Assembly (NCBI GenBank): GCA_044892525.1
Contig: CM097886.1
Coordinates: forward strand, 104,904,001 to 104,968,000
Reading direction: 5' to 3'
Source: Schmidtea polychroa
Lineage: Eukaryota
Length of the DNA: 64,000 nt
Shown: in pieces, positions 7,608 through 42,429 of the stretch
Position numbering within the stretch: the first letter of the stretch is position 1
Layout: each line of letters begins with the position of its first letter
Notes under the pieces: generated by a model
What the model was told of the DNA's origin: nothing
The model's database searches: none
The model's input: the letters and a program-made list of their open reading frames with translations, nothing else
Program-made: the position numbers and the translations under genes

Positions 7608-7677
7608 CTGTAGAATATTTTTTAAAAGTGGTCATAACGAACCAAAGTTTACCTGTAGAATATTTTTTAAAAGTGGT
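7608..7677. repeat. Two 25-bp direct repeats in the LTR (CTGTAGAATATTTTTTAAAAGTGGT), U3-side enhancer candidate
   Basis: Exact copies at 7608-7632 and 7653-7677, mirrored in the other LTR (+26136). Confidence 0.6.
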
Positions 7678-9092: not shown

Positions 9093-9147
9093 ACTACTAT
9101 ACGAAAATTTTTATTTACAATTATTTACATTGATCATTCATCTTTAA

Positions 9148-9849: not shown

Positions 9850-10023
9850 TTTCTATAATATATACATAATTAATAATTGCGCTACAGTGCGTCTTATACT
9901 TATACATTTATATGTTATTTTATAATCAGGGTTACAGTCCCTTTCATACTTTTACTGTACCATTAATTTTTTTGGTTGGGATACAGGTCCCGATTTTTAT
10001 ATTTTTTATCTTTCCTTTTATCT

Positions 10024-11061
10024 TTATACAAAGGTCTCTTCCTTGCCTACATATCCTTCATCGCTTTCTACTGACATTTGTAATTGGAGTGCGATGGGAT
10101 CAAATGGGATGTAGTACCGGGGAATCTGCGCTCTAAGTTCTTGGACTTCGTCTCTTAGCGCTCTTGACACATTGAGTTCCTCGTCCAATAGGTAGGTTAA
10201 ATACCTAGTTTCGTCATCCCGTACTTCTATCTGTTTTTCTAATTCTTCCGCCTTTTCGCCGTTCTCCCATTTCTTGATCTCCTTTTCGAGGTTCTTGATA
10301 TTTTCATCATACATCTTCCTCTCGTTTTCTAATTTCTTATTCTTACCGGCTAGCACTATATTCCTTTGTTCTAGTGCCCCTTTGTAGCCGTTATTGTCTC
10401 TTTCGAGGTCTGTCACCTTATTTACGAGTTCGACGATTCTACCTGACTGTTGCAGGATCATCTCTTCCATGGCGGTATTCTCTTGTTCCTTTATAGACAA
10501 TTTCATGGCTAGATGCCTTTCAAATTCCATGGCCTTGGTCTGCCAGGTTTGACTTCGTGCCGCTATTTTCCTGAGCCTTCTTAGCTCTTCTCTCTGATCA
10601 AGGTTTTCCTCCCATTTCCCTTGTTCACTTTCGTATTCCAATTTCTGAGGTAATTCTCTCATCTCTGTTTTGATTTCCCGATGTTGTCTTTTCCACTTTC
10701 TGGCTTCTGCCAAGAGTTGACGAGATTTCCTTTCCTCTTTTTGTTTTTCCATCTCTCGTTTTTTATTCTCGTCCGTCAGTCTTTTTCTCGATTCCTGTAC
10801 CAATTGTTTTAAGTAGTGACCGTGAGCTTCCTGTCGCGTATTTTCTAATGCTGCCCACTTGGCGGCTCTCTTACAGGCCTCTGCCTCTGCTCGTAAATTT
10901 TGCACCAACCACTGAAATTGGTGGTTTTCCCATTCCCTTGCTTCTTCAAGGTAGTTTCGTGTCTTATTTGCTAATTGCGCCATCACTTTGGCCCATCTTT
11001 CTCGGTGTACTCCATTGATTTTTATTTCATGGTTTGGGGCTTCCGTTCGTTCTTGTGTCAT
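10024..11061 (-). CDS. Accessory coiled-coil protein, 345 aa
   Basis: Long helical E/K/R-rich ORF on the same strand. Confidence 0.75.
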   Translation of the reverse strand: MTQERTEAPNHEIKINGVHRERWAKVMAQLANKTRNYLEEAREWENHQFQWLVQNLRAEAEACKRAAKWAALENTRQEAHGHYLKQLVQESRKRLTDENKKREMEKQKEERKSRQLLAEARKWKRQHREIKTEMRELPQKLEYESEQGKWEENLDQREELRRLRKIAARSQTWQTKAMEFERHLAMKLSIKEQENTAMEEMILQQSGRIVELVNKVTDLERDNNGYKGALEQRNIVLAGKNKKLENERKMYDENIKNLEKEIKKWENGEKAEELEKQIEVRDDETRYLTYLLDEELNVSRALRDEVQELRAQIPRYYIPFDPIALQLQMSVESDEGYVGKEETFV

Positions 11062-11279
11062 CTTATCTGAATAACGAGATTATCAACTCAACGTCTCACA
11101 TTTATATTTGTTCTATTATTTATTTATTGTTACGAATATAGGTGGGTTGGGATTTTTCGAGGTTTTCCGCTTAAATTTACCTTTAGTAGATTTGGGGTTT
11201 TTCTACACTAGTATATAATATTTTACTGGATATATACGCCGATATTTACAATTTATTATATACAAAATTATTCGTCTCC

Positions 11280-12668
11280 CTACTCAGTCCTACTCTTCCC
11301 ATCTCGCCTCACCGCTATTTTTATATATATAGTGTCGTTTCTCGTCATATCCTCTACTTTCCGCTGTAGGATGAAATTCGGTGCTCCGGTTGCTGGTCCT
11401 TCTTCTTCCAATGGCCTTTGATAACATACAAGGTTTCCTGCTGTATGGAAACTCTGTTCATGTATACTTTGATAGTTCATCATTGCGAGATCTATTTTTG
11501 CTTTGAACGGCCATTCTATTAACTCGTCGTATAGCCCTTTGCATATCAAGAAGAATATTGAGAAATGTGTTCCGTGCGCACTCCCGTCCCCATTGGGATA
11601 TGCTTTCATTTTCATCTTATATCCGTTTTTCCATGAGTAGAATGCTGGACTTAATAATGTCGTATCCTTTCCATTTCTCGCTCTCTGCATTTTCTCCTTT
11701 ACTTCCGTTATTTTCCATATGTATGGAGCCGTTGGTATCAATTCATTGAGGTTCATTTCACTTACCTTTTGGTGTAGTTCCTTCACCATTTTGTTGCTAG
11801 TTTCTACTAGATCTTTCTGTATCTTTGTACTTAGTCTTGCCTCTTCGAATGCTTCTTTCTCTTGCAATAATTCTTTTACCAACGTTTTTAGCGAAATTAT
11901 TTCCTTTTCCAAATTTTCGGTTTTCCTTTCATTTTCTTGTAATACCGTTGACCACATTTCTGCGTGTGTTGATACGTTCTCTGCTAGATGTTGGGGTAGT
12001 TCTCCTCGGTGTAGTTGTTTCTGACATCCCCATTTTCCTAACACACACATTATCTTTTTCCTTTCACATTCTTTCAGATGTTGAGCGAGTTTTATTACTC
12101 CGGTTTTATCGCATTTGTTGGGACATTCTCCTCTGAATTCTGCGCACACTTTTTCCTCTTGTACGTTATGATGTTGACTCATTAGTTGCCTCCAGGTGTC
12201 GGTTTCTCCGCAATATTCACATTTTTCTAGCCTTTCTTTGCATCGACTTTGATGTTCTGCTTCTTCACTGGCTTTAATCTCTTCTTGGCAACGTTCGCAG
12301 TGACTGACTTTATACTCACACTTCTCCATATGTTGCCTCACTTCCCATATCACTCCTCGCCAATTACATGGGGTGTTTTTACATCCTAGGTTTGCATTCA
12401 ACATATCTTTTACAGCTGCTTTATCTTCGTTTGTATCTCCCAAACTTGTTATCATTGTTTCTTTGCATACTGGGCACCATTGTGGTCCCTTCTTTATTAT
12501 TTCTTCCACACATCCTTTACACATTCTACATCCGCATCTGGTTTGGTGAGGTTCTTTTAATAATCCTTTGCATATTCCACACTTCACATGGTCATGTATT
12601 CGAATTGTGGTGGATTTTCTGACTTGTTCGACAATTTCTTTGAATTCCTCTCGTTGTCGCTTATCCAT
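11280..12668 (-). CDS. traf-like: Full-length intronless TRAF-family protein (RING - TRAF Zn fingers - coiled coil - MATH/TRAF-C)
   Basis: RING CGICKGLLKEPHQTRCGCRMCKGC...CPVC; Zn fingers C.N..C.W.G...H...C.Y; TRAF-C motifs YIWKI, SPAFYS..GYKM..KAYPNGDG..GTHFSIFF, WPF, FI. Confidence 0.95.
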   Translation of the reverse strand: MDKRQREEFKEIVEQVRKSTTIRIHDHVKCGICKGLLKEPHQTRCGCRMCKGCVEEIIKKGPQWCPVCKETMITSLGDTNEDKAAVKDMLNANLGCKNTPCNWRGVIWEVRQHMEKCEYKVSHCERCQEEIKASEEAEHQSRCKERLEKCEYCGETDTWRQLMSQHHNVQEEKVCAEFRGECPNKCDKTGVIKLAQHLKECERKKIMCVLGKWGCQKQLHRGELPQHLAENVSTHAEMWSTVLQENERKTENLEKEIISLKTLVKELLQEKEAFEEARLSTKIQKDLVETSNKMVKELHQKVSEMNLNELIPTAPYIWKITEVKEKMQRARNGKDTTLLSPAFYSWKNGYKMKMKAYPNGDGSAHGTHFSIFFLICKGLYDELIEWPFKAKIDLAMMNYQSIHEQSFHTAGNLVCYQRPLEEEGPATGAPNFILQRKVEDMTRNDTIYIKIAVRRDGKSRTE

Positions 12669-12756
12669 TTCTATAATTATATATATACATATATTCGTTA
12701 CTGGTACATTCTCGTATTTTTATTTACAATTATTTACATGTTGTTTTGGGTCATAT

Positions 12757-13284: not shown

Positions 13285-16200
13285 CTATATTTGTGAGTTT
13301 GGAGGGCGCTGAGCATTCCAGGCCTCCACCCACTGTTCCTGCTTGATATTACTTGGTCTCTTTACCTGATGTTGAAAATTTCTGATTCTGGCCATCTCCA
13401 GTTCTCCGCGATGCCGTCTATCTTTGATTATTTTTATGGTTCCCCCCATTATGATTAAAAATGCCCCTGCTATTATTATACCGCTGATCCACATCATCTG
13501 TTTCATGCTTATGATTTCCGCTTTTTCCTTGTTCGTTATTGTTGGTATTGCCTCTGTGCTTTTTAGATTACCACCTTTGTCATTTCCTTTTATCATTCCT
13601 CGTATTCTTGCTATTTCTTCGTTCATGCCTTCCTTTGCCATTTTTTGTATTTTCTCCATCTCTTCTTCTGACACGTAATTATCTTGATATTTCTCACTAG
13701 TTTTCTTGCGCTTTTCTTCCTCTTCTTTCTCATCGTTGCTTTTTCTTTTCTTCCCTCTTTTCCCAGGGTATCGTCGACATTCTCTCGCTGTATCGTTTCT
13801 CCAGATGCATACTGTGTATTCTTTTGGAGGTTGTTGCTGTGTTACATATTGTAGATAGTCTTCACCCGGTCCTAATCTTGAAATGCAGACTTTGTGTTCT
13901 TTTCTTGGCTGGAGTTGCGTTATCACTACCTCACCTCCTTTTCTCAGGTGTACCTCCTTCCCTTTGACTTTAGTTATTCTCTTCCCGTCTCGATTCCGGT
14001 ATGCTTCTTGTATTCTTACTTCCGTTATCGGTTCTGTATCTTCATTTATTAATACTAGTCTCCGATATGCTCTCGACATACATCTTCCTAGTATGCACCT
14101 TTCTTTTAGATCCCATTCTTCTTTTAAATCCCATTGTTGCTCTCGTACTTGCTTCTTCTTTTCTTGCTTTAGTTCCTTCTCCTTGTTATCTTTGTTTTCC
14201 GTTTCCTTGGCTTCTTTTATCGTTCTCATTCCACCGTGGGCTGTTATCATTTCTACCATTGTTAGTATGAGTATCATTACCATCATATTTGTCTCCATTT
14301 CCTTGTTGGTAAAAAGTAGGCATACCCTCTGTTTCCCATTATTCGTCTTTTCCTCTTCCTTTGTTCGGCTTCCCGGTTTATTTTCCTCCTTTTTTATACC
14401 TGAGTCGTTATTCCCTTGATTATTCTCCTCTGATTTCTCTTTCTCTCCATTCCCGTTTCGACCTTGTTCATTATTATCATCGTCTTTATCGTCTTTATCT
14501 CCCCCGCTGTCGTTTGAAATGTCGTCCTCGACATTTATGTCGTTCAATAATCTGCGATATGCTGTTAACACTCTATTTCTTGCTAATTTCGCTTCGAATT
14601 CGAACTCCCTTCTGCCTGTTGCTGCATGTCTCTTTCTATTCCATTCTTTTACTAATTCTCTTAATTGTATTCGACGATGTTTTCCGATTCGCTTTTGTTC
14701 GTTTTGATTTTGCGTAAATTTGAGGTCTTCTCTGTTCAATACGATCATTATGATTTTCGGAGTTCCTCCTTTTGTCAGCGTATTTTTAACCATGGCATTT
14801 TCCCCGTTTTCATAGAACTCATTTATGTTTATTGCATATGTATTACTTTGTGGTATTTTCCATGTTAGCAACAACTTCATGGCTTCTAAGTTCTTCCGTA
14901 TCGTGTTCCATTGGAACTGTGACGTGTTTTTACAGATATTTTCTACCTCAGTTCTTGTAGCATTTTTACGAATGAATCTAATCATTTCTAAGTTTGGTTG
15001 TATTGTTGCCCAATCCATGCTAGAATTTCCTTCGTTTGATATTTCGTCAAGTCTCGAACCTGATTGGTGTAGTATGTGTAAAGTTTTCGGGTGTATATTT
15101 GTTATTGCTGCATACATCATTGCTGTTTCTCCTTGTTCGTTTTTTGCATTTGATTCTTCTCCGAAGTCTCTAAGAATTCTTATGATGGTTATTGCTCTGT
15201 TTTCTTTTGCTGCTAAAATGGCTTGTTGTAATGGTGTTCTTGAATCTTTTGTTGGTAAGGTGAATGCTAGTGGTATGAATGTTTTTATTTTACCTATGTC
15301 TAGATTTGTGGTCTGATCTCTTGCGTAGGTGTGTACTGTTTTGGTTATTTTTGCTAGTATCGCTTCATCGGATAGATCTTGCATTTCTTCAAAGAATACT
15401 TCTTTAGCCTTACGTACTACTATCTCTTGGTCGGAGTTTATTGTCTTTGGTTTACTTGTTGTTGCTATATCGGTTATTGTTTGATCGACTTGTTCCTCAG
15501 ACTCTCTTGCTTTTACTTTCTTCATTTTTATCTTTTTCTTGTTCGAACTGTTAATGCGTTCCTCTGCCGTTAGAACTTGGATAATACTTAGGTAGTTTTC
15601 TCGAATGTTGTTCATAGTTTCCATCATCTGTAAAACACTCACGGTTTCCCAAAACTTTACTTGTACTTTATCGGTAAATTGAGATATGGCTTTTTCGAAG
15701 TTGGTAATTCGTTTTCTGATTAGTTGTTCGTCTTTGTGATTTGAAAACTTTATGCCACGTTGTAGTAGTTGATTTGGGATCTCGAATAGGTGATGTCCCC
15801 TCATCGCTTCTCTCATCAAGGTGTTTTCTCCTTTGGTAAATGTTTCGTTTATATCTACCATGTAATCGTTTTTGATCGGGTTTCTCCACGAAATTAGTAT
15901 TCCAGTAATTGTTATTAATTTCTCTTTGATTGCAGTTAATAACCCGTCATACATGTTTCCTATCTCCCTATTATCCTCGTATGATAATAGATCTACTAAG
16001 ATTATGAAGGCTTCCGTACTTTTCCCTTCGATTGCCTGGTGTAGTGCGTTTTTCTGGTTGTGATCTTGTGTGGTTATCTTTGACCCAGTTTCGAGTAATG
16101 CGATGATAATATCTTTAGCTTTATCCCGATTGGCTGCTATCATTAGTGGGGTGTAACCTTGGTTATTTTCTTGATCCGTCGAAATGTTACAGTCGCGGAA

Positions 16201-19200
16201 TGCTTCAATTGTCTCTAGTATTTGTTCATTATAACCAACCTTTAAAAGTTTGTGTAGTGGTGTATCTCCGTAGTGATCTGTGATTGTGAATAATATGGGC
16301 CATTGACTTTTAACTACCCTGAGCAATGGGTGTGTTCTTTCTCGGTTTGCATAGTTTTCTATCATTGTTAGCAGACCTCCCAATATTTCAAAATCTAATC
16401 TGTCTTTTGCCCATCCGGGCATTTTAGCTTTTACTTCCTTTATGATTTTGTCGGCTTCTGATGGTTGTAACCCCAATCGATTACCTGTTGGTTCGTTTAC
16501 TTGCTGTAACATATTTATTCTGTACGTTTGTGATCTTGTCGTTAATGTACGTCCTTCTGGCTGACTGGTGGCGGTTTTCGGAATTGGCTTACATCGTGCA
16601 ACATTTACGTATATTGGCCTTGTGAAGGGATTGTTCACCAATCGTACTCTTACGTTAGTTTCTCCGACGAATAAAATCTCATACGGACCTTTACCGTTTC
16701 GTTGTAATTTTTTAGTGGTTCCTGGAATTAATTCTGGGGTTTCGATCATCACCCAATCACCTGTTTGAAATGTATGTTGTTTGACGTTTTTCTTTCTATC
16801 GTGCAAGTCTTTGTAACTCTCTTGATAAAATTTTATATTCAGTCCTGCAGTTTCCCAGATTTCCTGCATTCTTTCCTTGAACTTTGTTACGTAATCGTCT
16901 ATTTCCATGTATTGTGATATCGGTGGCTGATACTCCAAATCCATTGGCATATTACATTCTCTACCGTACATCAATTTGAATGGACTCATCTTTGTGGACG
17001 CGTGAATCGACATTCTGTAAGCCATTAAACATAATTTTATATACTCGTCCCAGTCTCGTTGATGACGATCGACATAATTTGATAACATTTGAATCAATGT
17101 TCCATTGAATCTTTCTGTCATACCATTAGTTTGTGGATGATACGGTGATGTTCTTAATTTTGCAATCTTGAAGTAATTGGTTACTTCGCTCATTATTTCA
17201 CTCATGAAATTTGTCCCTTGATCAGTCAGTATCTGTTTCGGCGTTCCATACCGGCAACATATTTCCTCGACTAATATTTTCGCGATTGTTTTTGCTTTCT
17301 GGTCTGCCATAGCGAATGCTTCGGGAAATTTAGTCAGATAGTCCGTGATCACCAATATGTAAATATTCCCTCTATCTGATTCCGGAAGTGGACCGACTAC
17401 GTCCATTGATATCATTGTCATTGGTTCTGCCGGTACTGGCATTGGCTTTAACGGTGCTTTCCATTTCGTTCCCGTGTTTTTTCTGGTCGCGCAAGTTATA
17501 CAGTTCTTTACCCATTCCGTTACGTCTTCGGATAGCGTAGGCCAGAAGTATTTTTGTTTCATCCGTGCCAACGTCTTTTTTGATGACATATGTCCTCCGA
17601 GTCTTCCGTCATGATATTGCGTTAGCAAATCTTTACGTCTATTCTCGGGAATGCACATCAGCCTTTTTTCGCCATCCATTATCAACAACCAATCTTTTTC
17701 TATTATATATCGATGTCGATGTTTATCCATATGCTCTTTCAATTTTTGATCTTTCTCATATACCTCTGCTTTCCCTGTTTTTACATATTCGATTATTTGT
17801 TTCAACTCTACATCCTCTTGTTGGTCTTTCCGTAATTGACAAAAATCTAAATCTTCCGCTATCATCAGACATATTCGTTGCGTTTCGTGATCTACTAGGT
17901 CTGGAAAAATAAATCTGGACATACAATCTGCATTGGCATTTGCTCTTCCCGCTTTGAATTTTATGAACGGTGAATATTCTTGTAACTGCATTGCCCATCG
18001 CATCAACCTACTTGAAGCTTCCTTGTGCTGTCCGAGCCATACTAATGGTTGATGATCCGTTGTGATACATATTTCGTGTCCCCATAACAAATATCGAAAA
18101 TGTTTAATCGCTTGTATAATTGCTAACGCTTCTCTCTCGGTTACGGAATAGTTTTTCTCATGCTTTTTAAACGTTCTACTGTAGTATCCGATCACTCTTT
18201 CTTTTCCTTCCTCGTCGAGTTGTCCCAATATTGCTCCGGCTGCATATCCACTTGCATCTGTCGCTAACAAGAACGGTTTCTTGAAATCAGGATGTACTAG
18301 TATTGGAGCTTCAATTAATTTATCTCGTAGTGTTTCGAATGCTTTTTGCTGTTCTGCACCCCAAATAAATGAGATATCTTTTTTCACCAATTCTTGGATT
18401 GGTTTCGCAATACCTGCATAGTTTTTGATGAATTTACGATAATATCCGCATAATCCGAGAAATTCTTGAACTTGGGTGACAGTTTTTGGTGCTGGACATG
18501 TTTTTATTTTTTCTATGTTTCTGGGATCTGGTTCTTTGCCTTTTGCTGACACTATGTGTCCTAAGAACGTAACTTTTTCTTTTGCCCAATCACATTTGGA
18601 TGGTTTAAGCTTCAATTTCCATTGTCGTAATCGGATGAACACGTTTCTAATGTCTTCCAAATGTTGTTCGAAAGTTGCTGAATATATTAATAAATCATCA
18701 ATATATACCATACATTGCTTGATCCCGTGTGTGACAAAATTCATACATCTCTGAAATGATGCTGGGGCATTGGTCAGTCCAAACGGCATTTTCCTGAATT
18801 GGTATAGATCTCGGCCCAATGTGAATGCTGTTTTCTCTTTGTCTTCCTCCTTGACTTTGATCTGCCAATATCCACTTTTCAGATCTAAAGATGTAAAATA
18901 TGCGGCCCCCTGTAACATAAGTAACATCTCATTGATATCTGGTAACGGGTATGTGTCTCTTTTTGTTACTGCATTTAGTTTCCGATAATCGATACAGAAT
19001 CTCTGAGTACCGTCTTTTTTCTTCACCATGACTACTGGAAATTGCCATGGCGAACAACTTGGTTCGATCACTTGTGCATCTAGCATTTTTTGTACCTCTG
19101 CTTCGGCTATCTCTTTTTGCTTTTCTGCTAGTTTGTATGGTCGTAACGCAATTGGGGTTTCGTCTATTAATGGTATTGCGTGTAATGTAACATCGCATGC

Positions 19201-22200
19201 TCCCAAATCTAGATCCGAAATTGCGAATATATCTTTATATTCTATCAATAATTGTTGAAGTCTTTCCTTTTCTTTTTCCGTTAGCAAGGTGCTATCAATT
19301 ATCCATAATTCGTCAGCTTTCGTTGTTTCGTTGGTGATTTTTGGTAATTCGATGTCTATCATGGGTGTCAATCTACCCAATCTTTCATTTTCATATATGA
19401 TCTTGTCTTCTTCCTCGAAATTTGTGATGTTAATTGGTATTTCCCCTTCTTCATTTATTGTTATTATTTCTCTTGCTAATGGTAATTCTCGTCGTTTTTC
19501 GAATGATTTGCTTGGCTCGAAGATGGCTTCTCCTTCCATTCCTGTATCCACTTTTATTTGACATATCATTTGTGATTTTGCTGGTACAATTATTTTCTCC
19601 GGACATCTAATTATTGCGTTCATCTTGCATATTCTACCCATTTTATCTTTTAGACACATGGTTGTTAAATCGATTACTACTTCCTTGAACAATTCCGGCA
19701 TTAAATCCGTTCCGATTATACATGGTTCACTCAGTTTGGGTATTACTGCTAGATACGTTTCAATTTCATTATCTTGATATCGTAACGTAGTCCACCATCT
19801 TCCTACTACGTCTACGGTTTCTTTACTGCAGGCAATAATATGGATAGTTGTTTGTTCGATGTCTTTCCAACATTTACTGGGTATTTGGTTTATTGCTATT
19901 GCTGATACGTTTGCTCCGGTATCTATCATTGCGCTTGTCTCTTTCCCATTGATTTGGATCATGACTGTTACTGCCGCGCCTCCTGGTGAACTCATTACTG
20001 CTATGGTTCTTACGTCATCAGCTTGATCTACACTTTTCGTTCTTCGGGTTGGCATATAGTTCATTCCTGGTTGACTTGGTAACTGTGGATACATATTTTG
20101 TGTCATGGTCAAAGCTGTTTGTTGTCCAATGATATCTGGTGGTATATAACTTGCGTTGGCTATCCAGGTATTTGTTTTTTCTTTCTCCCAATATGGCGCT
20201 GTTTCTATTGGCTTTTCATTCGGGTTTCTACTTGGATATGGATATTTGTCATTCCCATTGTCGTCATCATCACTATCGCTGCTGTTTGATCGATTCCTAA
20301 ATCTGTCTAAGAATTTTGGTTTGTTCTTCTTTAATTGCGCTCTCGTTGCTTCATCATACATCGTTTTCCGAAATCGTCTGCCAACTTCCTCATCTGTCCC
20401 TTTTATTTTTGTCAGTATTTTGATTAATCGTTTTATTCTGTGTATATCTTTAGAATGACCGTGCAACACCATTGTTTTTGCCAAAAATGGTAGAAAACCT
20501 ACTATCAACTTCCAATTTACTTTCTTTTCTCTCTTATAGATATCAAAACACGCTAACATTTGAGTTAATATTACTCTGACAATCTGAATAATTAAGATGA
20601 TTCCTAATATTCCTGCCATCATTTGACCGAACACTAGAAATCTTCCCCACATTGCTTTCATCATGTTTGACGTGGCTTGTTGGAAATGATCCGGTGATAA
20701 TAATAGTTCATAGTTGGGACTTGATTGGAAATTCGTTCCCCCAGTTATGGTAACCATATTTGATAAAATGGATTCCCGTCTTGCTGGGAATAATACGTTT
20801 AATCGTGCCGTTTCTAAATCCTCTGGTGAGTACATACCAGCCTTTGACACATCAATTGGTTTGAAATCCTGTTCTGTTGCAAGCTCTATTAATCCAAACT
20901 TTTTAGGTTCTTGCACTTCTACTTTTAACGGTAACATTATCCATTTCCCATCGGGTTTTTTATATAATGGCCCGTATGCATTTGAACAGTTAAAGGTGTT
21001 CGGATAAAATCCAATTGGGTTCATAATTCTGGTGACGGGTTGAACGAATCTGTTCCGCCCTTTGTAACTAATTTCTAATTCGTTTGCACATTTCCCTGGT
21101 GGAATTGTGGGTTTTCTTGGCAGTCGTGCAAATGTCTTGGTACATGCATATGTATACATTACCTCTCCCACCATTCTGCCAAAATGTCCATCCGGTAACG
21201 GGAGTGATGGCATTGTGTTATCTGGGTGTGTTATTGCGATGGCTAATTTTGTTTTTAGTATTTCTTTATTCAATGAACAGTCATTTTGTATAAGATCGTA
21301 ATATACTTTTTGCATTGTCGTTTGTCCTCGGTGGAACAAGAAGTCCATCTTATTATTGGCATACAGGTACAATTTTATGTCCTCCGTTGCTACCTTTCCC
21401 ACTGCTCGGTCTATTACTTGCCTTGACATGTAGATACCTGCGTAGTTCGTTCGATATACTATACTGTCACATTTGGTGGTCTCTTTCTCTCTGATAAATC
21501 TCATACCGATATCTGGGTCATCTGTAATTAATGCCGTTGGTGTTTTTTGGGTTGTGAGTCTCTTTTCTTTGGGGGATGGCGGAACTGGTTTCCCATTTCG
21601 CATCCTTACGTTTCCATTCTCTTCATCGTCATCTTCGTTTTCATAAATTTCTCCTTTTACTTCATTGAACAAAGCACTTTTTAACAATTGGAGTCGGCAT
21701 TTTTGGGTGTTGGCTTCATATATTATAGTCGAAATTCCCGTTCTACACACGTTTTCCGTAGCTCTGCATGCTGGGTTGGTTTTCATTTGATAATTATTTG
21801 CGTCGAATTGCGCTTCGTACTCCTTCAACTCCACTGTGTAGGACTCAATTACTACTACCCCGGATATTACCTCCCCTCTGATCGTATATGTGCCTCCGTT
21901 ACAGGATCCATCGGTTGATTTTACTCGTCCGGCTACATAGATACTTTCCGTCTTGATCATTCCGCTTTGTCCGTGTATTGTCACTCCATCCCGGATTCTC
22001 ATTGCTCCGGTTCTAAAAAGCTCTTTGCAGTCTTCTCGTTGTATAGGTACTATTTCTTTATCTAATCCGGGTAGTATGAGAGTTGAATAAGAATATTGTC
22101 CACAATAATATGCCAACACTTTCTTTGATATTACGCATTCTCTAGCTTGTGTTCGGATAAAATCTGATTCTTGATATACGTGATAGGAAACTTTCTTCTT

Positions 22201-25200
22201 TACTATATCTAGTTTATTCGGAGATGCTTGTCTGCATTCCTCTATATCTCTCAGGGAGTATTTTTCTCTTAATACCGAATTGTCACAGTCGTAGATTGTA
22301 AATCCAGCTGCTCCGCTGGTACAGAGCATCCATATCATCATGGTCATCATTAGTGAATTAATCGACGCTTTTCTGCTGGCTGGGTCCTTTAATGGCAATT
22401 CCCATTCTAGCTCGTTTAATAATTTTTTCAACCTGATTTGCATTGATCTCTCTTGCTCGTTTTTTCGTGGTGCTTGTATGAGTCTTTTCCACCCTCCGGC
22501 ATGGATAATATGTGGTTCGATTGTACTTTCAATGATTGTAACTGTCATTTCTACATGATTTGCGAATTGTTTGTTAGGTATTTTTCTCGCTGCTAATCCC
22601 ATCAAATTGTACATTAGATACGTTAACACTACTAAATGATGTTCGTCGTCGTTTGCGTTTAGAGTTAATTGTTCGATTACTCTTCTTGTCTCTTCCCAAT
22701 CGGTTTTAGTGGTTTTTGTCTTTTCTTTGATTAATTTTGGAATTATTCCGGATATTGTATTCCATAGCTGTCTGGCATGCACGCTTGCTACTTTTCGTTG
22801 CCATAACCGTCTCAATTGCGGGTTTGTTATTATTAACATATCTTTTACCAGCTCCCGTATCCATTTTTCACCTCTCTCGATTGTTGGTTGAGCCTCTTTT
22901 AGATCCCACACTATTTTATCCAATTTCTCTAATCTGACTTGTCCTTGTTCTTGTTTCAACTGTTCTCTGGTTTTGAATTCTGGTTTTTCTCCTTGCTTCT
23001 TGGGCCTCCCTTTTGCCCGTTTTTCCATCATTGTTCCAGCTTCTCTTGTCTTTTCGTAATTCGGGTTTCTCTCGTTATCTGTTCTTGGCAATGAGCTATC
23101 GTTGTTTCTCAGCCACTCATTCCATTCGTCTATTATTTTGTCTGTTTGACCTTCCGGTGTTACTCTTGTTGGTCCGTTTTGTTTTTGGAATTGTTCGTCG
23201 GTTTCGGTTTCTGTCGTATTATCGATAATTTCCTCAATACTCAACTTACCCGGTTGTTGATAACTAGTTGACGGCTGGCTTGTTGTCCAAATCTCTGCCC
23301 CTGTCGGCCATCTCACTAGTATTGGCGATCTTTCTCCCGCTCCTTCATCGCTGTCTTCCAATATGATCTCTTCGATTTCTTCAGTTTCGTTCGATTTACT
23401 CGCCGCTTTGTCAGGGCTTGGTGTACTCAAGCTACCTTTCGTAGGTTTATCGGATTTACTTTTCTTTTTGATTGGTTTTCCCAATGTTTCTGCCATTGTC
23501 AATACATTGATCTCCCCTAATCTCATGGGTGTTATTCCGACGTCTGCATTATCATCTAATGATTTTCCGAATAGTTGTAGGTGAAATGGAGTTTCGTAGG
23601 CCAATTTCTTTTTTAACTCTCTGATCTTTGTTGTTGGATGCACATCTATATCCTCGATGCTCTTGTCGGGATATTTGACTCGGATACGATATCTTTCTTG
23701 GGTATCTTGTGCCCATTCTTGATTTCTCCATTTTCTAATAATTTGTTCTAGCTGTTCTGGATACCATTCGTTATACTGTCGGTATTCTTCTATCGCCTTC
23801 GCCATCTCTCTTAGATTGTGGATATTTTCTGATGTCTTTAGTATGATGGTAGCTAATGCTACTACTTGTCGCTTTTGATTTTTTGCTCCCATTGCTAAGA
23901 TATCACCTAATTGTTTGTATCTTTCCTTCTCTTCTCGTTCTCTCGCTTCTTTTGCCTCTTCACCGTCTATGTCGGCGTATTCGCGTTCCTTCTTTCTCAT
24001 CGCATGAATATGCCTGATTTCGGTTTCACTTTCTGACGTAACATCCGTTTCGCTTGCGTTGTCCGATATCGATTCCATTTCGTCCTCTTCGTATTTTGGA
24101 GGTTCATCTTCCTCTTCTGCTGATTCACTTCCTATCTCGCCAATGTCTGTTTCTACGAAAATCCCTTTCCTGATTTCCCATTCTTTGTTTTCCGCATTCC
24201 ACATCCTTTCCCATGGAGTTCGTCTGCAAGATCTGGTACTCAGTTTCTTTATTTTTCCTTGAAGCTCTTTTTCCTTTAGCCATTGTTGATGAATTTCAAT
24301 TATCTCCACTGATTTTTGGTATAGCGTTTTCATCCTGTCTCTTATCTCTTTCTGGTATGTTACATCTCTTGTTCGAAATTCGTCCATGGGCAATATTCTA
24401 ATGATTTGATGATTATCCCACATTCCCATTTCACTTAACGAGGTATCGTCTTCAGCCCGTAGTATTATTTTATCGTACATCATGACTACGTCATCTATCA
24501 TACCATCGCTGCTCTCGCTTCGAACTTTTTCCGTTATTTCTTGGTTTATCTTTGATACTAAATCGTCCACCGTATTCTGGTTGCTCATTTTTATTCGTCG
24601 TTTCTCCTCGTTTGGTAACCATATGGTTATTTCCAATTTCTGCGGTTGCGTTTCTTTTAATCTTCCGTATTTGTGGATCAAATTTATGGTTCTCCAATCA
24701 CTCATTCGGAGTAATTCTGTATCTCGCAGTCGGCTCATTAGTTCATGCATGTCGGGAGTTCGTCTTGTTATGAGCAAATCCCAGTTATCTTCAACTTGTT
24801 CTTGGATTTGTTTGATTAATTTATCTAGATTTCGTCTTAGAGTGCATTGTTTTAGTTGCTCCAACTTCAGCTTGATATTAAAGTCATACTCGGCCTTGGC
24901 GTCTTTAGCCCATTCGTGAATATTTGCTGGTTGCTTCTCTTTATGCAACTTCAATATTTGAGTTTCTCCTGGCCAGATCAATGCATCTATTAGGTGCATG
25001 TCTGGTTTGATCTGTTCTCCTTGATATTGATACAGGTATTCTTTCTTTCTCGAGCTGCCCAAATGTTCTCTTATCCAATCGAAAAGCTCGTCTGTAACTG
25101 CATTTTTTATCCATATTCTCTCGAGTCCTTTACTCGTTCCGATTTTTATTACATAGCGTGTTGTCTCTGCTTGTTTCATTTTTTCCATGTACTTCTTTAT

Positions 25201-27159
25201 TATCCTCTTTTCCTCGTTTGGTATTAGATCTTTTTCGTTTCTTTCTAGTTTCATTATCTTTTGTATGAAGCGTCTGTATGGTATAATGTCAATGAAATCC
25301 TGGTTTCTTACTACCACTGGAAGTATTTCTTTTACTTGTTTTATCGCTTCTTCTCTTTCTTTTCTCAATTTCATCTCGATATTCTCATCTTCACTTTCGC
25401 TTGTCACATCGCTTTCACTCTCATCTTCATCTGCTCCGATCTTTTCTCTTAGTTGGTCGATGTTTTCATTTAACTGTAACATTTCTCCACCAAGGCTACT
25501 CACATAATCCTCATCGTCATCTGTTGACAACACCTTCTTTGTTGTCCTCATCATATTAATTCGCAAATTTCTCATTCTTGGTACTTTCCTTAGCTTTTTG
25601 TTCTCGAATATCGTTAGCTCCTCTGAGTCTAATTCTTGTATCATATCATGATTTAGATGATTAATCTGTTTTTCCTTTTTGTTATTTTCTGCTTCTGCTT
25701 CTGGTTTTGATTTCTCATTTTCCCTTTCGATTTTATCTTTTATCTTTTTCCAGAATATTTTCTGAATTCTCTGATTTCCTTTTAGCGGTGTTGTTGGAGT
25801 TTCTTGGTTAGCTGTTGTAATCGTTTCTTTCGGTTTCTCTGGTTCGCTCACAGGTACAACTCTTGGATTTTTACCGTAATTGTAACAATATTGCTCTTTT
25901 ATCTCTTTTACCATTCTCATCATATTTATTCGTAATGGTTGTTCTTGTCGCTGCTGAATTCGTTCTCTTTTTATTCTCTCTTCTTCAGCTTGTAGTCTCT
26001 GCCATTCTTGTGCATGTTGTTGCACTTCATAATTGTTAAGATTCTCGGTACTCCTCATCATGCGTATGTTCTGGGTTTGTTGTGGTACTTGTTCTTGTCT
26101 CGGTCTCATCATTTGTTGCATCATCTGCTTCATTTGTGAAATTTCTTGCATCACATTCATTTGCTTTCCCTCACTGGGGTTACTTTGTCGTTGCGGATTT
26201 GGTGCATAATTATTATTTCGTTGTGGTGGTCGTTGTTGTTGGCCCCTTTCGCGACAGTCTCTTGAGATGTGACCTGGTTGACCACAGTTAAAACATCCTC
26301 TCAATTGACATATATTTTCCGTGTGTCCTCGTCGTCCACACCTATTGCAATTGGCGTTTCTATAACAGTCTCTATCCCAATGCCCTGGTTTACCGCATGT
26401 TCGGCATTGTTTGTTATCGTTCGTATTTCGTCGATTATTAAAGTTGTTCCCATTGTTCGAGTTGTTGCGTTCACTGTTATTTCCATTTGATCGTCCTTGT
26501 GGTGGTTTGAAAATTTGATGCGCACCGGGTATAAACTGATTCATTTTTGGTTCATGATTGTTGTTCTCTCCATTTTCAGTTTTTACCGTTGCTGTTGCGA
26601 TTCTTCCCTCCTCTTGCATGACATTCATTTGTGCCGGGAGGTGAAGTTCGCATCTCGTGGCCCAATCTATGGCCTCCTCTAGTGTTTTACACATTTGACA
26701 TCCCACCGAGGCTCTTACCTCCTCTCGGCGTAGTCCTTCTATGAAATAACCAATTAAATTTTCCTCCGGCAAGTTTCCGTTCATGGCCTTCTTTGCCAAT
26801 CTTCGCAATTCGCTTGCGTATAACGTTATTGATTCATTTGCTCTTTGTTTTCTACTCGCTAATTCTCCTAGGGCTTGATTTATTGGTTTGCTGGCTCCGA
26901 AAGTTTTTCTCAAAAATGTTTTGATGTTTTCCCAATTGTCCAGCTTCGTATTTCTTTCTTTAGCTTCTAAGTACACTTCTAATGCGCTATCGCATAAAAA
27001 CAACGGCATCCGTTTACTAATTGCTTCGGACGTCCATCCACACACATCGATATAGACTTCAAAATTGGTTATGAACGTTGCCAACTTGTTCGCATTCCCG
27101 TTGAATGGCTCGCCTCTAAATTTTTCTTTATACTCGTCGGTTTTTACCCCATTCGTCAT
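13285..27159 (-). CDS. 4,624-aa Gag-Ubl-Bcl2-Env-PR-RT-RH-IN-ankyrin-membrane polyprotein
   Basis: One uninterrupted ORF with all catalytic motifs intact: DTG, YIDD, RNase H DAS...E...D, and integrase HHCC and D,D35E. Confidence 0.97.
   Translation of the reverse strand: [4624 protein letters not shown]
13430..14290 (-). other. C-terminal membrane module: second signal-like segment, FN3-like ectodomain, TM anchor
   Basis: [34 protein letters not shown] resembles FN3 strand F; [19 protein letters not shown] followed by KIIKDRR. Confidence 0.55.
14960..16290 (-). other. Two clusters of ankyrin repeats
   Basis: [18 protein letters not shown]...[40 protein letters not shown]. Confidence 0.85.
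16600..17700 (-). other. int: Integrase (HHCC, DDE core, GPY/F)
   Basis: H....GGH...C..[37 protein letters not shown]. Confidence 0.96.
17915..18290 (-). other. RNase H domain
   Basis: [33 protein letters not shown] and NANADCMSR. Confidence 0.95.
18400..19170 (-). other. rt: Reverse transcriptase domain (Ty3/Gypsy)
   Basis: [51 protein letters not shown] and YIDD (18694-18705). Confidence 0.97.
19640..19975 (-). other. pro: Aspartic protease domain
   Basis: [19 protein letters not shown] (DTG at 19915-19923) and the IIGTD motif. Confidence 0.95.
20460..22355 (-). other. env: Env: internal signal peptide + class III (chuvirus G / herpes gB-like) fusion glycoprotein + TM
   Basis: [23 protein letters not shown]...YSL.DIEEC...C.I.....YYCG; later DC..NKEIL...LA....P......[39 protein letters not shown]. 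This Cys pattern is the one I recall for chuvirus-type glycoproteins. Confidence 0.8.
22474..22870 (-). other. Bcl-2-like domain
   Basis: Helical region ending [14 protein letters not shown], which resembles the BH2 consensus L..WI...GGW. BH1 is degenerate. Confidence 0.6.
23494..25160 (-). other. Three ubiquitin-like (beta-grasp) domains: ~24940-25160, ~24388-24640, ~23494-23695
   Basis: Each ~70-85 aa shows the beta-beta-alpha pattern (I.V.....T..I.V....T...L...I), then an L.Y/F.G..L.D...L motif and a terminal I.L strand. Confidence 0.55.
26255..27159 (-). other. gag: Gag domain: capsid-like region and three CCHC zinc knuckles (26255-26406)
   Basis: [28 protein letters not shown] and [14 protein letters not shown]. 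The upstream region has retrotransposon-gag-like [18 protein letters not shown]. Confidence 0.92.
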
Positions 27160-29190: not shown

Positions 29191-29670
29191 CTAACTGAAA
29201 TAGATTGTGTGCTTCTCTTTTATTACACATGTGCACATAGAACAACGGATTAAATTGGCGGCGCATTCGTCACAATTACTAAGGTGCCCACAAGGTAGAA
29301 TCAGAGTTTTGACAGGTCGCATCTTGCAAATGTTACAAATTCTCAAGGCCGCTGCTTTCTCTACTATTGATGTTCGTATCCGCTGAGACAGAGTTTTGAC
29401 TTGTTCGCGTATCCTCACATATTCGATGTTCAGAGCGGGGTCGTCGAGTCGTTGCTGCATCCATTGGTAATGGGTAGACAAGTCAGTGTTGGTAGTTGTT
29501 GATCCTAATCTGTCGGTTAGAAAGTTTTGTTTGGATATCAGCGGTGCGTTGTGGCGTTGTTGCTCTAAGAGTTCTATTTGTTTCAGTTTCTCTCTTAATA
29601 TCTTTATCGAATCATTTTCTATGTCGATGAATCTGCTTAGCTGTTGTAGATGTTTTCTAGCTTCCGACAT
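29191..29670 (-). CDS. Coiled-coil + C-terminal IAP/Mdm2-type C3HC4 RING protein (putative E3 ligase)
   Basis: CNICKMRPVKTLILPCGHLSNCDECAANLIRCSMCTCVIKEKHTIYFS. The terminal RING plus hydrophobic tail is typical of IAP-like RINGs. No BIR domain. Confidence 0.88.
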   Translation of the reverse strand: MSEARKHLQQLSRFIDIENDSIKILREKLKQIELLEQQRHNAPLISKQNFLTDRLGSTTTNTDLSTHYQWMQQRLDDPALNIEYVRIREQVKTLSQRIRTSIVEKAAALRICNICKMRPVKTLILPCGHLSNCDECAANLIRCSMCTCVIKEKHTIYFS

Positions 29671-30107
29671 ATCTAAATGAAGGTGTTGTTATTATTTTGT
29701 TCCTGCTGGTATTAACAATAATATTATTATGTTTGTATTTAATATTCGTTGACTTTTATGTGTTAGTGTTTTAACTTTTGTATTTTATTCGATCTTTGAA
29801 ATTCCTCTTTCATATTTTTTCGCTTTAATCATTTACTTTCTTTCGTCCCCCCTTTTATTTTAACCAGTTAATATTAACTACAATAACTAATTCCCGTTTT
29901 CTTTTCTCATCATGCCTCATCACATTCATTCCAACTCATTTAGGTTCGTTTCATTCACCACATACTCTATTTCAAACTCAGACAGTTCGTATCATTTCAT
30001 TGCGCTATAATTCGTTTCAGCCCCGATTCCATTCTTATCATAATTAATTAGATTGTTAATCTAACACATCATAACACAAAAATAGACAATCAAACAAATC
30101 ACTGTAA

Positions 30108-30125
30108 ATCCCGGCTGAGCCCCCA
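30108..30125 (-). promoter_or_regulatory. Primer-binding site, tRNA-Pro type (TGGGGGCTCAGCCGGGAT)
   Basis: Matches the classical tRNA-Pro PBS TGGGGGCTCGTCCGGGAT at 16/18 positions. Starts 7 nt after the 5' LTR. Confidence 0.85.
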
Positions 30126-30132: not shown

Positions 30133-33100
30133 TGTTGGCGTATGTGGAGAAGAGAGAAAAATATGCATGCCTTTCCATCACACCTATCAAGCATCATCAC
30201 TCCGTTATACATTTTCTACACATACTCCAGATGATTGATCGCATATTCCCACATATGAGCCCATGGTGATGTTCCATGTTGGTGCTGCTCACACGGGTCG
30301 GAAAAGGTTAGCAGGTGAGCCCCTGCCTTAGGACTACTCCTAACCCTTTCTCGGTTCGGGTCCTACGGTGCCTTAGAAGGTCTTACCCACATACATGCGT
30401 ATCACTCGGTCTGATCCTGGTCCAAAGGAACAACCTTCAACCCTAATTACCTTCATTCCGCAGCATTATCTCATCTACTCTAATTGCACAAACAAATGTA
30501 TGAAAACTTGACAAAACTGAAATCAAACAGAAAATTTTATTGACACTGAAACGATAAAAATATCATTACCACTAACAGATCAACAGCAGTCAAAAATATA
30601 TAACATTAGCAGAATTCACAAGGTAATTTACAACTCGATGAAGAAAAAATCAAGCTCAATTGTACGTCGCGTTAGACAAAGTCATCCCCACCTGCAAGCA
30701 TCTCATCTATGTCGACCGGTAATCGGCTATCTACAATATATTTGATGCCCCCGGCCGGAACAATGCGGAAGACTTCTTTCGAGGGGATTGAATGGGTGGA
30801 CGATATTTCTTGGATTTTTGATTGCGCCGCCGATAAGGACGCCTCGAGTGCTGTCATCGCATCTCGGCGTTTTTGATTCTTCTCGGCTCGAGTTGGCCGT
30901 TTCCGTTTGCGAGGTGGCAGATTATCTCCTACAGCCGTGGTGACACTAGATGCCACGAGAATTGGAGCCAGAATTGGGTCCGAAGGACCGCCTACCTTTG
31001 GCTGATGGCCTGACAACACTGGGGCTGGAATGGGCGGCAGTTGTGAGCCGTGCCCCTGACAGTTCGAGCTGGAAGATGTAGAAGACTGGTGGTGAAGGGG
31101 AAAGACATTCATCCCATCCAGAACGGGAAATTCTCGCACCCGCTTCGCCAGTTCTGCCTCCGTATATACTTTATGGAGGGCTTCTGATTGTGCTTTGATA
31201 GTGAGCCGCTGGCAACGGCTTTCCTCTAGCAGGCTGTCCCTGCAATGCTCCAATCGGAGAATTTTCTTGCGTTCCTCTTTCATTTGTGGCGGGGAGAACC
31301 ACGTTCCTTCATAGAGATCAATTCTCTTTTTGAGAGCCCCGATATATAAGTGAAGTTGGGCGATATCCGCGTTCTTGTCCGCACAAGAAAAACACGGGCG
31401 AAGTTCTTTGGCGTTGTTGTACGATGTAGCCATCTAGAAAATCAATCATTGTTTATGTTTACTCGAAAAACCTCTATCAGTGCGATAAAAATCAAATTTT
31501 GGGGCATGGTTTTGGAGTTTTATCAAACATACCACCCAACAATGACCCACAGACCTCTTCATCCATCTCTATTCGCAGTCATTCAGTTGCAAGCATTCAA
31601 ATCTCTTCACCTGATTCGTGTAAATTAAGAAAAGCAAACGGGGATTTCATGCACAAAATTCTCCCTCTCTAAACCTCGCCCTTTGGATTTGTTTTCGGAT
31701 GGGACAATTCCCAGGTAAAGCTCGTCTTTTACTTTATTCCCTTCAACCTTGTTCCCCTTAGTATATTTTTATTTAAAAATTTGCCGATATCATTATGGCA
31801 ATCCGTCGATGTAGGCGTACCTAAAATTACAGAGAAATAATTCACGGCGACGGAATAGATTATTTATGTTTTTATCTCGTTCAAAATTATGGAATTGATC
31901 ATGTAATCAGTTGAAAATTCAGCTCTAAATCTACATCTAATTAATTCCAATAACGCGTCGAAATCGTCGTCATGGAAAACGTTTACTTGTGATTATGCAT
32001 TATGACTGAATGTGTAGGTGTGTCATTACTCCTGGTGGTATCTGTAACTGTATGTTGGCTATCACCGCGAATGATGGTTTATGCTGTTATGAGAAATTAT
32101 TATATATCGAGTTGTGTAGGGGAAATCCATTCCTTTACTTCATCCTATTATCTCGCTGTTCTAGAAAAGTTCATATTATCATGCCGCTATTACATCACCA
32201 AAAATCGTGGATTTACTTTTACACTGCCCTATGTAGACTTGACTGTGGTGTGCGTGTGTATGTGCATTCTCAAGTCGGAATAATATGGGTTGCGTAATAG
32301 ATTCCTCAAACAAGCAGCCGTAGACGAATCGGAAAGTCAGATTAATCAATCTGAGTAGGCGACAAATTAGTAGATTATTGAGTAAGCTCGATGTTATTAT
32401 CTAATTCTCTTTCACGATATTAATTCAGGCCAATGACTATCAGCTTATCCATTTGACATTTCTCCAGAAAACCGACACGTTATCTCTTTCTCTAGGACAT
32501 TATCCGCTATCTCCTGTCGACTAACTCTACGCTGGCTAATGTAAATCAACTGATTTCGTTATCGTTGGCAACTATTGCCTGCGAGCTCGAAGTGAGGATT
32601 TTGATAATTTCACTGCAAGATGTTTACTTTCCTGTCAGCGAGAGATTTTTTATCACTGGCATCGGCGATTCAAGGACGACAGTTCCATCGTAAGAGTACA
32701 TCGATAATGGATGTAGCCGCTAACGTTTTGACGGCACAAATCAGACAGAGCCTTGCAAATGCAGTACGTTGCAGAAAAATCGTTGGATTTACTCGCAATC
32801 TATGGTCAACACTGTTCTTTCCCAACTACGTCGATCGAAAGGCTGAATATCATGAAAAATTTTCTCCTAGCTATGTGGATTATTATCGAATCAGTATGAA
32901 CGTCAATGCCAATCTCGATCTGAATTATCTGCATTCGAAATTTAAATCATCTCTACAACTATTGGAAATCTCGGTGTGACTAACTGAACCGATGGTACGC
33001 TCTATGGACGATCGCGCTTGATGAAGGAAATTTCACTTCCCAACTGGATTTTCCACCTACTGAGTTTCTTCACCCCTCATGACACACCCAAGAAGGCATT

Positions 33101-34361
33101 CATTGCTGCCACCTTCTTGCACCGTCATGAGGGACCAATCAACTCGTTTCCATTCAATTAAATCAACAATAAAATAATCAAAATGAATGATGGGTAAATG
33201 CATAAATAAAATTTACCCGGCGACCATATCATTTGGACTCCAAGTATGATGTTGCTCATCCTACATAATCGAAACCTCATCGTCTCCTTGGTGGATCTCT
33301 AATATGACAACTACCACTCTCTGTAAATATCGCATTCGCATTTCAGCATGTTCGTGATTTCTTATGAAGACCAACCTTCTACTGTGGTGGTTCTCTACCG
33401 CAGTACAATTCCAACTCGTCCACATCATACTGGGAGTTCTCAGATGGTACAGTCGCCGGCACCATGAAGAAAGGCAGCTTTTCATTTAAATAAATTTATT
33501 GTATGAAATTGTTTTTATTATATTTATAACCATTAACGAAATTAAACTAACAACCATAAATAAAGCAACTGTCGAGACATACCTTGAGTTTCGAAAACTG
33601 GAGTTAAATCGGTTGAATTTAAAATTTGTCCTGAATAGATTTGTGGTTTGGCCTCTATATATTCCTTCCTCGGTTTGGTTTGGTAGTCTCTGAACTAGTT
33701 CGCTGTAGGATAATTTAGTCAAAGGTTCCGAAATCTGTAAAGTCTGTAGAATATTTTTTAAAAGTGGTCATAACGAACCAAAGTTTACCTGTAGAATATT
33801 TTTTAAAAGTGGTACTCTACAGATATTTTCCGTTCCTTATATATTATTTTTCGTCCAATCAGGACACGACTTGTTTGTATTTTTACTATTTATTATTATT
33901 TTTATGTTTTTTATTATAATATATTAGATTTTAATGACTTAACTTATTTCTTATTATTATTTTATTTATTTTCTTATTTTTATTATTTTCCTCCTATTTT
34001 TCCTGTGGATTTATTGCTACTTTATTGTAATATAATTTTTTGTTTTAATTAGACTTAAAGATAGTTTTATTTTTATTTATTTCTTAAATTTCTCGTTTAT
34101 TTGTTGTCACTTTTTTACTTATTCTATTCTATTTCATCTGCTGGGTCCTAAATCGCTTTATTTCTAAATCTTAAGGGGTTTATTGGGTTTTATTTAGTTT
34201 GTTTTACTTATTCTTATTCTCTTATTGATATTTTATTGTTCCTTTTTGATTTATTAGTGGGAATTTGATGGTACTTTATATTTTTATTTTATTTCGTTTA
34301 TTTTTCAAGGATTACTTTTCTATTCGCTCCAGTTTTCGAAACTCCGCGTTTTAGCCCAACA
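30133..34361 (-). repeat. 5' LTR (4,229 bp)
   Basis: Near-identical to 3997-8225; I saw one substitution (ccctgtctc ~4212 vs ccctttctc ~30348). Followed on the - strand by the PBS. Confidence 0.97.
30672..31433 (-). CDS. LTR-encoded 253-aa protein (copy in 5' LTR)
   Basis: Translation identical to 4536-5297. Confidence 0.65.
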   Translation of the reverse strand: MATSYNNAKELRPCFSCADKNADIAQLHLYIGALKKRIDLYEGTWFSPPQMKEERKKILRLEHCRDSLLEESRCQRLTIKAQSEALHKVYTEAELAKRVREFPVLDGMNVFPLHHQSSTSSSSNCQGHGSQLPPIPAPVLSGHQPKVGGPSDPILAPILVASSVTTAVGDNLPPRKRKRPTRAEKNQKRRDAMTALEASLSAAQSKIQEISSTHSIPSKEVFRIVPAGGIKYIVDSRLPVDIDEMLAGGDDFV

Positions 34362-35430: not shown

Positions 35431-35937
35431 AGTGGTTATGAGTAGATAGATTGGGTACCGCTGGCACAGGGCATTGCTGGCACAGGGCTTTGCTGGCACA
35501 GGGTACGGCTAGAACACTTACCCCTGACTGGAAAATTTGTCTCGTATGACTCATCAAGGTCATTTAAACAAAGACAATGACTCATCTGATGACTCATCCA
35601 GGTCGCATGACTCATCCCATGACTCCGCAAGGTCAAGTTTTCAAGGTCATTTAAACAAAGTCCATGACTCATCAGTAGGTAGATGGGAGCCCGCTGGCAC
35701 AAAGACCTATGACTCATCACCTTTCAGTGATGACTCATCGATTGATGACTCGTCGTGTAGAGAGTGAGTCAGGGGTCACGTGGGTGTATCATATGTGTGT
35801 GTGTATGACTCATGGTCTTTGTTCTACAACGGTTCAAACCCATCATGTCGGGTGAAAAGCATGAGTCATATATATTTTTCAAAACAAAGACATGTAACCC
35901 CCCCCCATAATAGCAAAAAATTTTTATGACTCATATT
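35431..35937 (+). repeat. AP-1-motif-rich terminal segment; candidate left end of the outer Polinton-like element
   Basis: Begins AGTGGTTATGAG exactly where the duplicated flank (2487/35430) is interrupted. About ten TGACTCA/TGAGTCA motifs; runs into the satellite that resumes at 51099. Confidence 0.55.
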
Positions 35938-42427: not shown

Positions 42428-42429
42428 AA

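Follow-up and report, generated by a model that had tools for sequence, protein, structure and literature searches.

The retroelement and its polyprotein

The window analysed here, a stretch of 64,000 nucleotides of Schmidtea polychroa (GenBank assembly GCA_044892525.1, contig CM097886.1, positions 104,904,001 to 104,968,000 of the forward strand), carries on its minus strand a whole long terminal repeat (LTR) retroelement of 30,365 bp (3997-34361; positions are those of the window, and all features of the element are on the minus strand), bounded by TG...CA ends and the 4-bp target-site duplication GTGG. In the middle part of its single polyprotein frame lies an envelope-like region, Env, which with its signal and transmembrane (TM) segment spans 20464-22359. 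We consider it quite probable that this region is the envelope of a giant Ty3/gypsy element, likely of the Burro family, that it lies in frame between Gag and protease as a predicted class III fusion protein, and that it is processed as proposed below. This reading starts from observed features: the single open frame, its order of domains, the match of Env to a known family, a conserved hydrophobic stretch ahead of the ectodomain, a TM segment, purifying selection and recent amplification of the family.

The polyprotein frame is stop-free from 27486 and runs for 4,733 codons from stop to stop; from its first ATG, at 27159, it encodes 4,624 aa (13285-27159). Amino acid positions follow the 4,733-codon frame, and subtracting 109 converts them to the numbering of the preliminary description of this DNA. 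Gag consists of a capsid domain (PF03732, aa161-254) and three CCHC knuckles (aa361-411; together 26254-27006), and Gag proper stops about 1,300 residues before the internal signal of Env. Between the two lie a ubiquitin-like stretch (23467-23685) that matches PF00240 weakly (E 0.015, which misses the curated cut-off; one sister family reaches E 1.4e-4), and a candidate Bcl-2-like domain with a BH2-like GGW motif (22462-22827). The latter match is likewise weak: Pfam, Atlas and single-sequence PDB searches were blank, and with a profile of three sequences the best 60 PDB matches all belonged to the Bcl-2 family, at E-values of 0.016-0.05.

The predicted internal signal sequence (22303-22359) is a hydrophobic stretch, aa1710-1728, ending in GAAG, the putative cleavage point; FTIYDC follows directly, starting at aa1729 (22302). 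The class III fusion-protein ectodomain predicted by Pfam, profile and fold (20650-22302, aa1729-2279) comprises 551 aa with 14 Cys, 13 of which are at least 90% conserved among relatives. Hydropathy places the TM segment at about aa2280-2317, with a conserved juxtamembrane hydrophobic tail (together 20464-20649), and a basic, low-complexity and presumably cytoplasmic spacer (19972-20463) leads on to the aspartic protease (19687-19971; PF00077, E 1.1e-07), whose DTG lies at about 19923 (aa2522). The hydrophobic signal, the AG|FTIYDC start, the Cys-rich ectodomain of about 550 aa and the TM segment, all in frame between Gag and the DTG protease, are as the preliminary description had given them. 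The GEV motif noted there is also present, but not in the written form GEV..Y.C; it reads GEVMYTYAC, and its conserved form is GEV-x-Y-x-x-x-C.

Past the protease, a 220-aa insert precedes the reverse transcriptase (RT) and RNase H (17974-19026), which Pfam assigns to the gypsy type, and the integrase (H2C2 and core, 17134-17652), giving the Pol order protease-RT-RNase H-integrase. The best PDB match of the RT was Ty3 (E 8e-94, vs. 8e-33 for the best retroviral match). The two LTRs, of 4,229 bp each (5' LTR, 30133-34361; 3' LTR, 3997-8225), are 99.976% identical, with one mismatch, and enclose an internal region of 21,907 bp; a primer-binding site of 20 nt, lying 7 nt inwards of the end of the 5' LTR (30106-30125), is complementary to the 3' end of host tRNA-Pro(TGG). 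By its paired LTRs, target-site duplication, tRNA primer site, Pol order and RT match, the host element classifies as Ty3/gypsy (Metaviridae), and the gag-env-pol order in a Gypsy host that the preliminary description had proposed was borne out. Peptidase_A17, DUF1759 and DUF5641 are Pao-type Pfam families; this BEL/Pao signature was absent among the 14 Pfam families matched by the polyprotein.

Several further observations concern the ends of the element. No clear purine run was present in the 40 nt preceding the 3' LTR (8226-8265), so that a polypurine tract is not evident although the LTRs differ in a single base only. The primer tRNA-Pro occurs in long tandem arrays of 475 bp (L042-L045; from G000:C1:130901009 onward), and the pattern was matched 1,555 times genome-wide. 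Each LTR also contains a 253-codon open frame (4536-5297 and 30672-31433) without a Pfam match, which is open (254 codons) in another copy.

Copies, sister families and selection

A search of the genome with env gave 2,859 candidates, 72 of which were scored; all 72 were 98-100% identical, 70 lacked an internal stop in the env stretch, and in 37 the surrounding frame was open for 4,724 codons or more, with other copies open up to 4,817 codons. Because the frame is stop-free in nearly all scored copies and so long in half of them, the Env frame is no accident of assembly or of a single copy; the element family has been amplified recently. An assembly artefact or a nested insertion was considered as an explanation of the locus and is excluded by the many copies with an intact frame, the matching LTRs and the target-site duplication.

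The ectodomain, compared with those of 19 other copies, showed 220 synonymous and 21 non-synonymous distinct codon differences (pN/pS 0.03, by simple site counts uncorrected for multiple hits), with no stop and no Cys changed; in the same copies the ratio was 0.02 in the protease, 0.01 in the TM region and 0.13 in the upstream linker. Env is under purifying selection, and the low ratio of its ectodomain therefore indicates that it has been maintained during transposition. As a caveat, the 19 copies were the top scorers against this protein, a bias towards intact env that favours a low pN and tells against this result. Across 19800-23800, the window copy differed from the 19 others (L002-L020) in 146-293 of 1,613 codons, mostly silently. 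The family comprises at least two apparent sub-lineages, and copies with intermediate difference counts may be recombinants.

A search with a diverged relative uncovered two more families in the genome that have the same order and an env identity of 33-35%. These sister families (L033-L034 and L036-L037) have open frames of 3,334 and 3,565 codons with the order Gag, ubiquitin-like, Bcl-2-like, Env, Pol; both likewise have a signal-like stretch after the integrase, and the C-terminal stretch of the second appears exonuclease-like by eye.

The continuity of the frame also bears on how the proteins are produced. Most Env, Gag or Pol could come from spliced or frameshifted products, with the polyprotein a minor product and the output not equimolar; in retroelements Gag is as a rule in large excess over Pol, four in-frame slippery heptamers occur between Gag and protease, and the 22-kb internal region has downstream open reading frames (ORFs) that require subgenomic RNAs anyway. 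Since these heptamers sit in A-rich sequence, and the frame is continuous in the 37 scored copies as well as in the sister families, we rate this alternative as rather unlikely. In the guessed-RNA run X1, the contigs cover all 30 bins and show no joint, although contigs can reveal neither splicing nor level. The equimolar Gag, Env and Pol envisaged in the preliminary description would follow only for a full-length mRNA that is unspliced and has no frameshift exit.

Family and predicted fold of Env

Env matched the Pfam family PF24664, the Monjiviricetes fusion glycoprotein, at E-values of 1.1e-71 to 2.9e-72. Atlas agrees on the family with a score of 0.96, at a recognition value below the reliable level. 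An exhaustive HMMER search with env yielded 990 relatives at E<=0.001; word-index homologue searches returned no match with the single protein and one with an alignment, which reflects a limit of their sensitivity, since the exhaustive search found so many. The best relatives were long polyproteins (29-47% identity); next came stand-alone proteins about 650-700 aa long (21-28%), among them that of Tacheng tick virus 4 (Chuviridae), a glycoprotein with 23% identity over 607 columns. In 13 of the 14 long relatives examined, the protease motif lay 71-331 residues past the TM segment, and Pfam confirmed protease, RT or Gag pieces in these long relatives. A hydrophobic stretch stood directly before x[YF]DC in all 13 polyprotein relatives shown, and the combination of signal and x[YF]DC was found at the N-terminus of 10 of the 11 stand-alone glycoproteins shown. 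One Gypsy Env-Pol polyprotein relative, P0007, is labelled as a protein of a Flavobacteriaceae metagenome bin and most likely represents animal DNA in that bin.

A single-sequence PDB search of env gave only three chance matches (E >1). With a profile of 106 env sequences, 34 PDB sequences were matched at E<=1, and all 34 were herpesvirus gB (best E 0.003). The AlphaFold2 model of env (pLDDT 90.3, pTM 0.69) has beta-rich domains and a central helix of 48 residues, as in the gB/G type of fold with its long central helix and its beta-rich fusion and PH-like domains; in a Foldseek comparison with the PDB, all 34 matches listed were again gB (best E 1.2e-13, TM-score about 0.4), and in one with BFVD chu-related glycoproteins took the first three ranks, at E-values of 1e-36 to 3e-36 and TMq of 0.51-0.66, with the best TMq of 0.69 at rank 4. 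Because the model matches both chuvirus-like G and herpes gB, Env is class III by predicted fold, and a predicted fusogen. The class III assignment of the preliminary description, together with the comparison to chuvirus G and gB that it had suggested, thus held up: both were matched, and the outcome was neither an absent class III fold nor a non-viral protein as best match.

A class I Env of the baculovirus F type, as in gypsy, was considered for this protein and rejected. It is favoured only by the wording of a 2019 review, which ties Burro env to the F-type gypsy Env with 96.7% probability (PMC6431247). No F-type Pfam family appeared at E<=10, and every PDB match listed, by profile and by fold, was gB; we regard a class I identity as barely conceivable.

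The resemblances of Env differ in kind among known systems. With the G proteins of Chuviridae/Jingchuvirales and other Monjiviricetes (PF24664) it shares the predicted fold, the Cys pattern, the succession of signal and x[YF]DC, the GEV motif, and the TM segment with its hydrophobic tail; in contrast to Env, these G proteins are encoded by separate genes in negative-strand RNA viruses and carry their signal at the N-terminus, and identity is only about 23%. Herpesvirus gB, the nearest solved structure, has the class III fold at about 11% identity and a TM-score of about 0.4; in herpesviruses it requires partner proteins. The BEL/Pao elements with chuvirus-like glycoproteins (Dezordi et al., 2020; PMC7642597) likewise combine an LTR retroelement with a PF24664-type glycoprotein. 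They belong to a different superfamily, however, and the glycoprotein of the BEL/Pao-linked P0067 follows DUF5641, the BEL C-terminal domain, and thus stands after pol.

Origin of env in Gypsy elements

In a quick env tree of 52 rows, which was unrooted and did not contain the window copy, ten envs of Gypsy polyproteins grouped together (SH-aLRT 99); named chuvirus G and the BEL/Pao-linked env P0067 fell outside this group, as did the polyprotein P0158, on a long branch. Of 154 rows, 118 passed a filter on length and 52 of these were used; this copy, sister family 3, P0002, P0004, P0010 and P0014 were dropped by the filter. Among the labels, "polyprotein" was wrong for P0108 and was missed for P0006 and P0012.

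The preliminary description had seen here an independent env capture by a Gypsy lineage, against a state of knowledge in which env lies 3' of pol. The corresponding scenario, in which this lineage newly and independently captured a chuvirus G and so has a gag-env-pol order unknown before, gains something from the chu-related glycoproteins, which are the nearest free relatives in sequence and fold, and from the separation of the Gypsy-polyprotein envs from P0067 and named chuvirus G in the tree. Yet the reverse layout, with env before pol, is already published (PMC6431247; PMC13524379), which refutes the novelty. This env is also far nearer to those of other Gypsy polyproteins (29-47%) than to free glycoproteins (21-28%), and it is common to two further families in the same genome (33-35%); if there was a capture, it would for these reasons be old and shared. 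Given also the limits of the quick tree, we judge an independent capture very improbable. A glycoprotein phylogeny, as the preliminary description had proposed, recovers ten Gypsy-polyprotein envs as a group; what it supports is an env that is old and common to this Gypsy group, and we claim neither a donor nor a direction of transfer.

Relation to Burro and other gag-env-pol elements

Arkhipova & Yushenova (2019; PMC6431247) described planarian Burro elements in which an env that matches mononegavirus glycoproteins is placed in frame after gag and before pol; Burro/GYPSM1 of Schmidtea mediterranea exceeds 30 kb, with an internal region of up to 25 kb and a polyprotein quoted at 4,873 aa. The element of the window shares with Burro/GYPSM1 LTRs and a size above 30 kb, a single huge ORF, three CCHC knuckles and very many copies; candidate ubiquitin-like and Bcl-2-like pieces (both weak matches here) and then env, in frame before the protease; and an env like mononegavirus-type fusion glycoproteins, ankyrin repeats and MATH/TRAF. 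Burro/GYPSM1 itself reportedly goes back to Grohme 2018 and Jurka 2007, the sources that Arkhipova & Yushenova cite. By these features the element is likely a Burro-family copy, that is, a planarian giant gypsy.

Several differences weigh against this placement. The ORF has 4,624 aa from its ATG, vs. the 4,873 aa quoted; MATH is found in a separate downstream TRAF-like ORF; a BIR domain, listed for Burro1, was found neither in the polyprotein nor in the six further ORFs of the element that were scanned; and membership is judged by architecture and not by how closely the sequence agrees with a Burro reference. The missing BIR domain and the position of MATH in its own ORF leave a Burro-type element with a weaker case for Burro1. 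No Pfam match was found in the 220-aa insert between protease and RT, where Burro would lead one to expect a dUTPase-like stretch. Env itself is linked to the F type in Burro (PMC6431247) and is class III by predicted fold here.

Elements of gypsy type with a gB-type GAG-ENV-POL arrangement have been reported from Nematoda, Bryozoa and Platyhelminthes, where they are not monophyletic (Chary & Hayashi, eLife; PMC13524379). These errantiviruses share with the present element a Ty3/gypsy Pol, a gB-type env before pol, multiple copies, and a class III ectodomain that has cysteine bridges and is flanked by signal and TM segment. For the nematode elements Chary & Hayashi refer to Sacco et al. 2022. 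Their LTR search left out pairs more than 14 kb apart, and the LTRs of an element of this size would therefore not have been called; the main text does not use the words "ankyrin", "TRAF" or "polyprotein" (PMC13524379).

Proposed processing of the polyprotein

In the mechanism that we propose, Gag and the accessory domains would be translated first and stay in the cytosol; the internal signal, a positional homologue of the signal peptide at the N-terminus of free viral G, would then thread the ectodomain into the lumen of the endoplasmic reticulum (ER), and signal peptidase would cut before FTIYDC, splitting Gag from Env. The TM segment would stop transfer, so that protease, RT, RNase H and integrase are returned to the cytosol on the tail of Env, from which the element's own protease would later free Pol. 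With this topology, Gag and Pol would part early, and Pol would remain attached to the tail of Env up to the action of the protease. Env would form trimers; capsids budding into membrane that carries it would then gain access to other cells, or to another compartment, through fusion of the class III kind. A similar processing of polyproteins that span the membrane is established for flavi- and alphaviruses. Since the same x[YF]DC motif follows the signal in polyprotein relatives and in stand-alone glycoproteins, the glycoprotein appears to have kept its own signal on becoming internal. A derivation of this signal from a tail anchor of the Bcl-2-like domain was dropped, since relatives without a visible BH2-like motif keep the signal and it matches that of free glycoproteins.

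Several points speak against this scheme. The signal is Met-rich and only moderately hydrophobic, staying below 1.5 in a 19-residue hydropathy window in which the TM segment reaches 1.5. A second short, conserved hydrophobic stretch past the TM segment, below the hydropathy threshold and found in free glycoproteins too, would, were it to span the membrane, leave Pol in the lumen and so invalidate the topology. The ectodomain contains a single N-x-S/T glycosylation sequon; solved gB is matched at low TM-scores, about 0.4, and at an rmsd near 12 A; and fusion, cleavage and particles are predictions from the sequence and the model.

Env could also be kept for something other than infection from cell to cell, as an ER anchor for the polyprotein and for capsid assembly or for intracellular fusion, with movement confined to the cell. 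Selection works through transposition success, whichever step Env serves; extracellular particles are not described in the accessible Burro literature searched, and the solitary sequon would fit an intracellular role. For anchoring alone, on the other hand, an ectodomain of 551 aa in which 13 Cys are conserved and the class III fold is complete would not be needed, and the glycoproteins of free viruses have the same architecture from end to end. We consider such a purely intracellular role improbable, and prefer the class III fusion envelope with the processing set out above.

Accessory genes and neighbouring elements

Past the integrase, the polyprotein contains two blocks of ankyrin repeats (15073-16215) and ends in a second predicted membrane protein (13420-14292), recognised by hydropathy as a signal-like stretch, about 245 aa and a TM segment. 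It gave no significant Pfam match; by eye, a motif in it resembles fibronectin III. Outside the polyprotein, an upstream accessory ORF (29191-29688) has a C-terminal RING domain (PF13920, E 3e-08), a downstream one (11280-12719) is TRAF-like, with RING and MATH (PF21355, E 2e-25), and three more downstream ORFs of 351, 234 and 217 aa (8457-11079) have no significant Pfam match and are open in another copy too. The TRAF-like gene, the RING ORF and the Bcl-2-like, ubiquitin-like and ankyrin pieces suggest that the element may interfere with the death and immune signalling of its host, as has likewise been proposed for Burro (PMC6431247).

The retroelement is followed in the window by a Maverick/Polinton-type element (35934-51102) with inverted repeats at 35934-36184 and 50852-51102; its genes encode a double jelly-roll capsid, an integrase fused to a phospholipase A2-like domain, an A32 ATPase and a protein-primed DNA polymerase. 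A second polymerase ORF lies further along, at 56142-59458.

Implications

The gene order and the glycoprotein are already known, having been reported in 2019 and generalised since. Added here are the assignment of env to class III rather than to the F type, on its predicted fold; a selection on Env as strong as that on the protease, in a very recently mobile family; and the conservation of the internal signal across diverged relatives. A literature search found no paper on such Env-Pol processing, most subscription journals being beyond its reach.

A wider proposal, which we hold tentatively and regard as somewhat doubtful in its entirety, is that Burro-type elements are infectious planarian retroviruses with a flavivirus-like polyprotein, in which Gag would be cut from Pol by signal peptidase and the enzymes would reach the site of budding attached to the cytoplasmic tail of trimeric Env and not as Gag-Pol; the C-terminal membrane protein might be the attachment partner of the fusogen. 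If this is true, the enzymes would be packaged through Env and not through Gag, a route unused by textbook retroviruses. The testable point is the processing and packaging of one polyprotein with two membrane proteins, and this could be studied in a tractable animal, in which Burro is derepressed on PIWI knock-down, as BURRO1 RNA rises on loss of a PIWI protein (PMC8532177).

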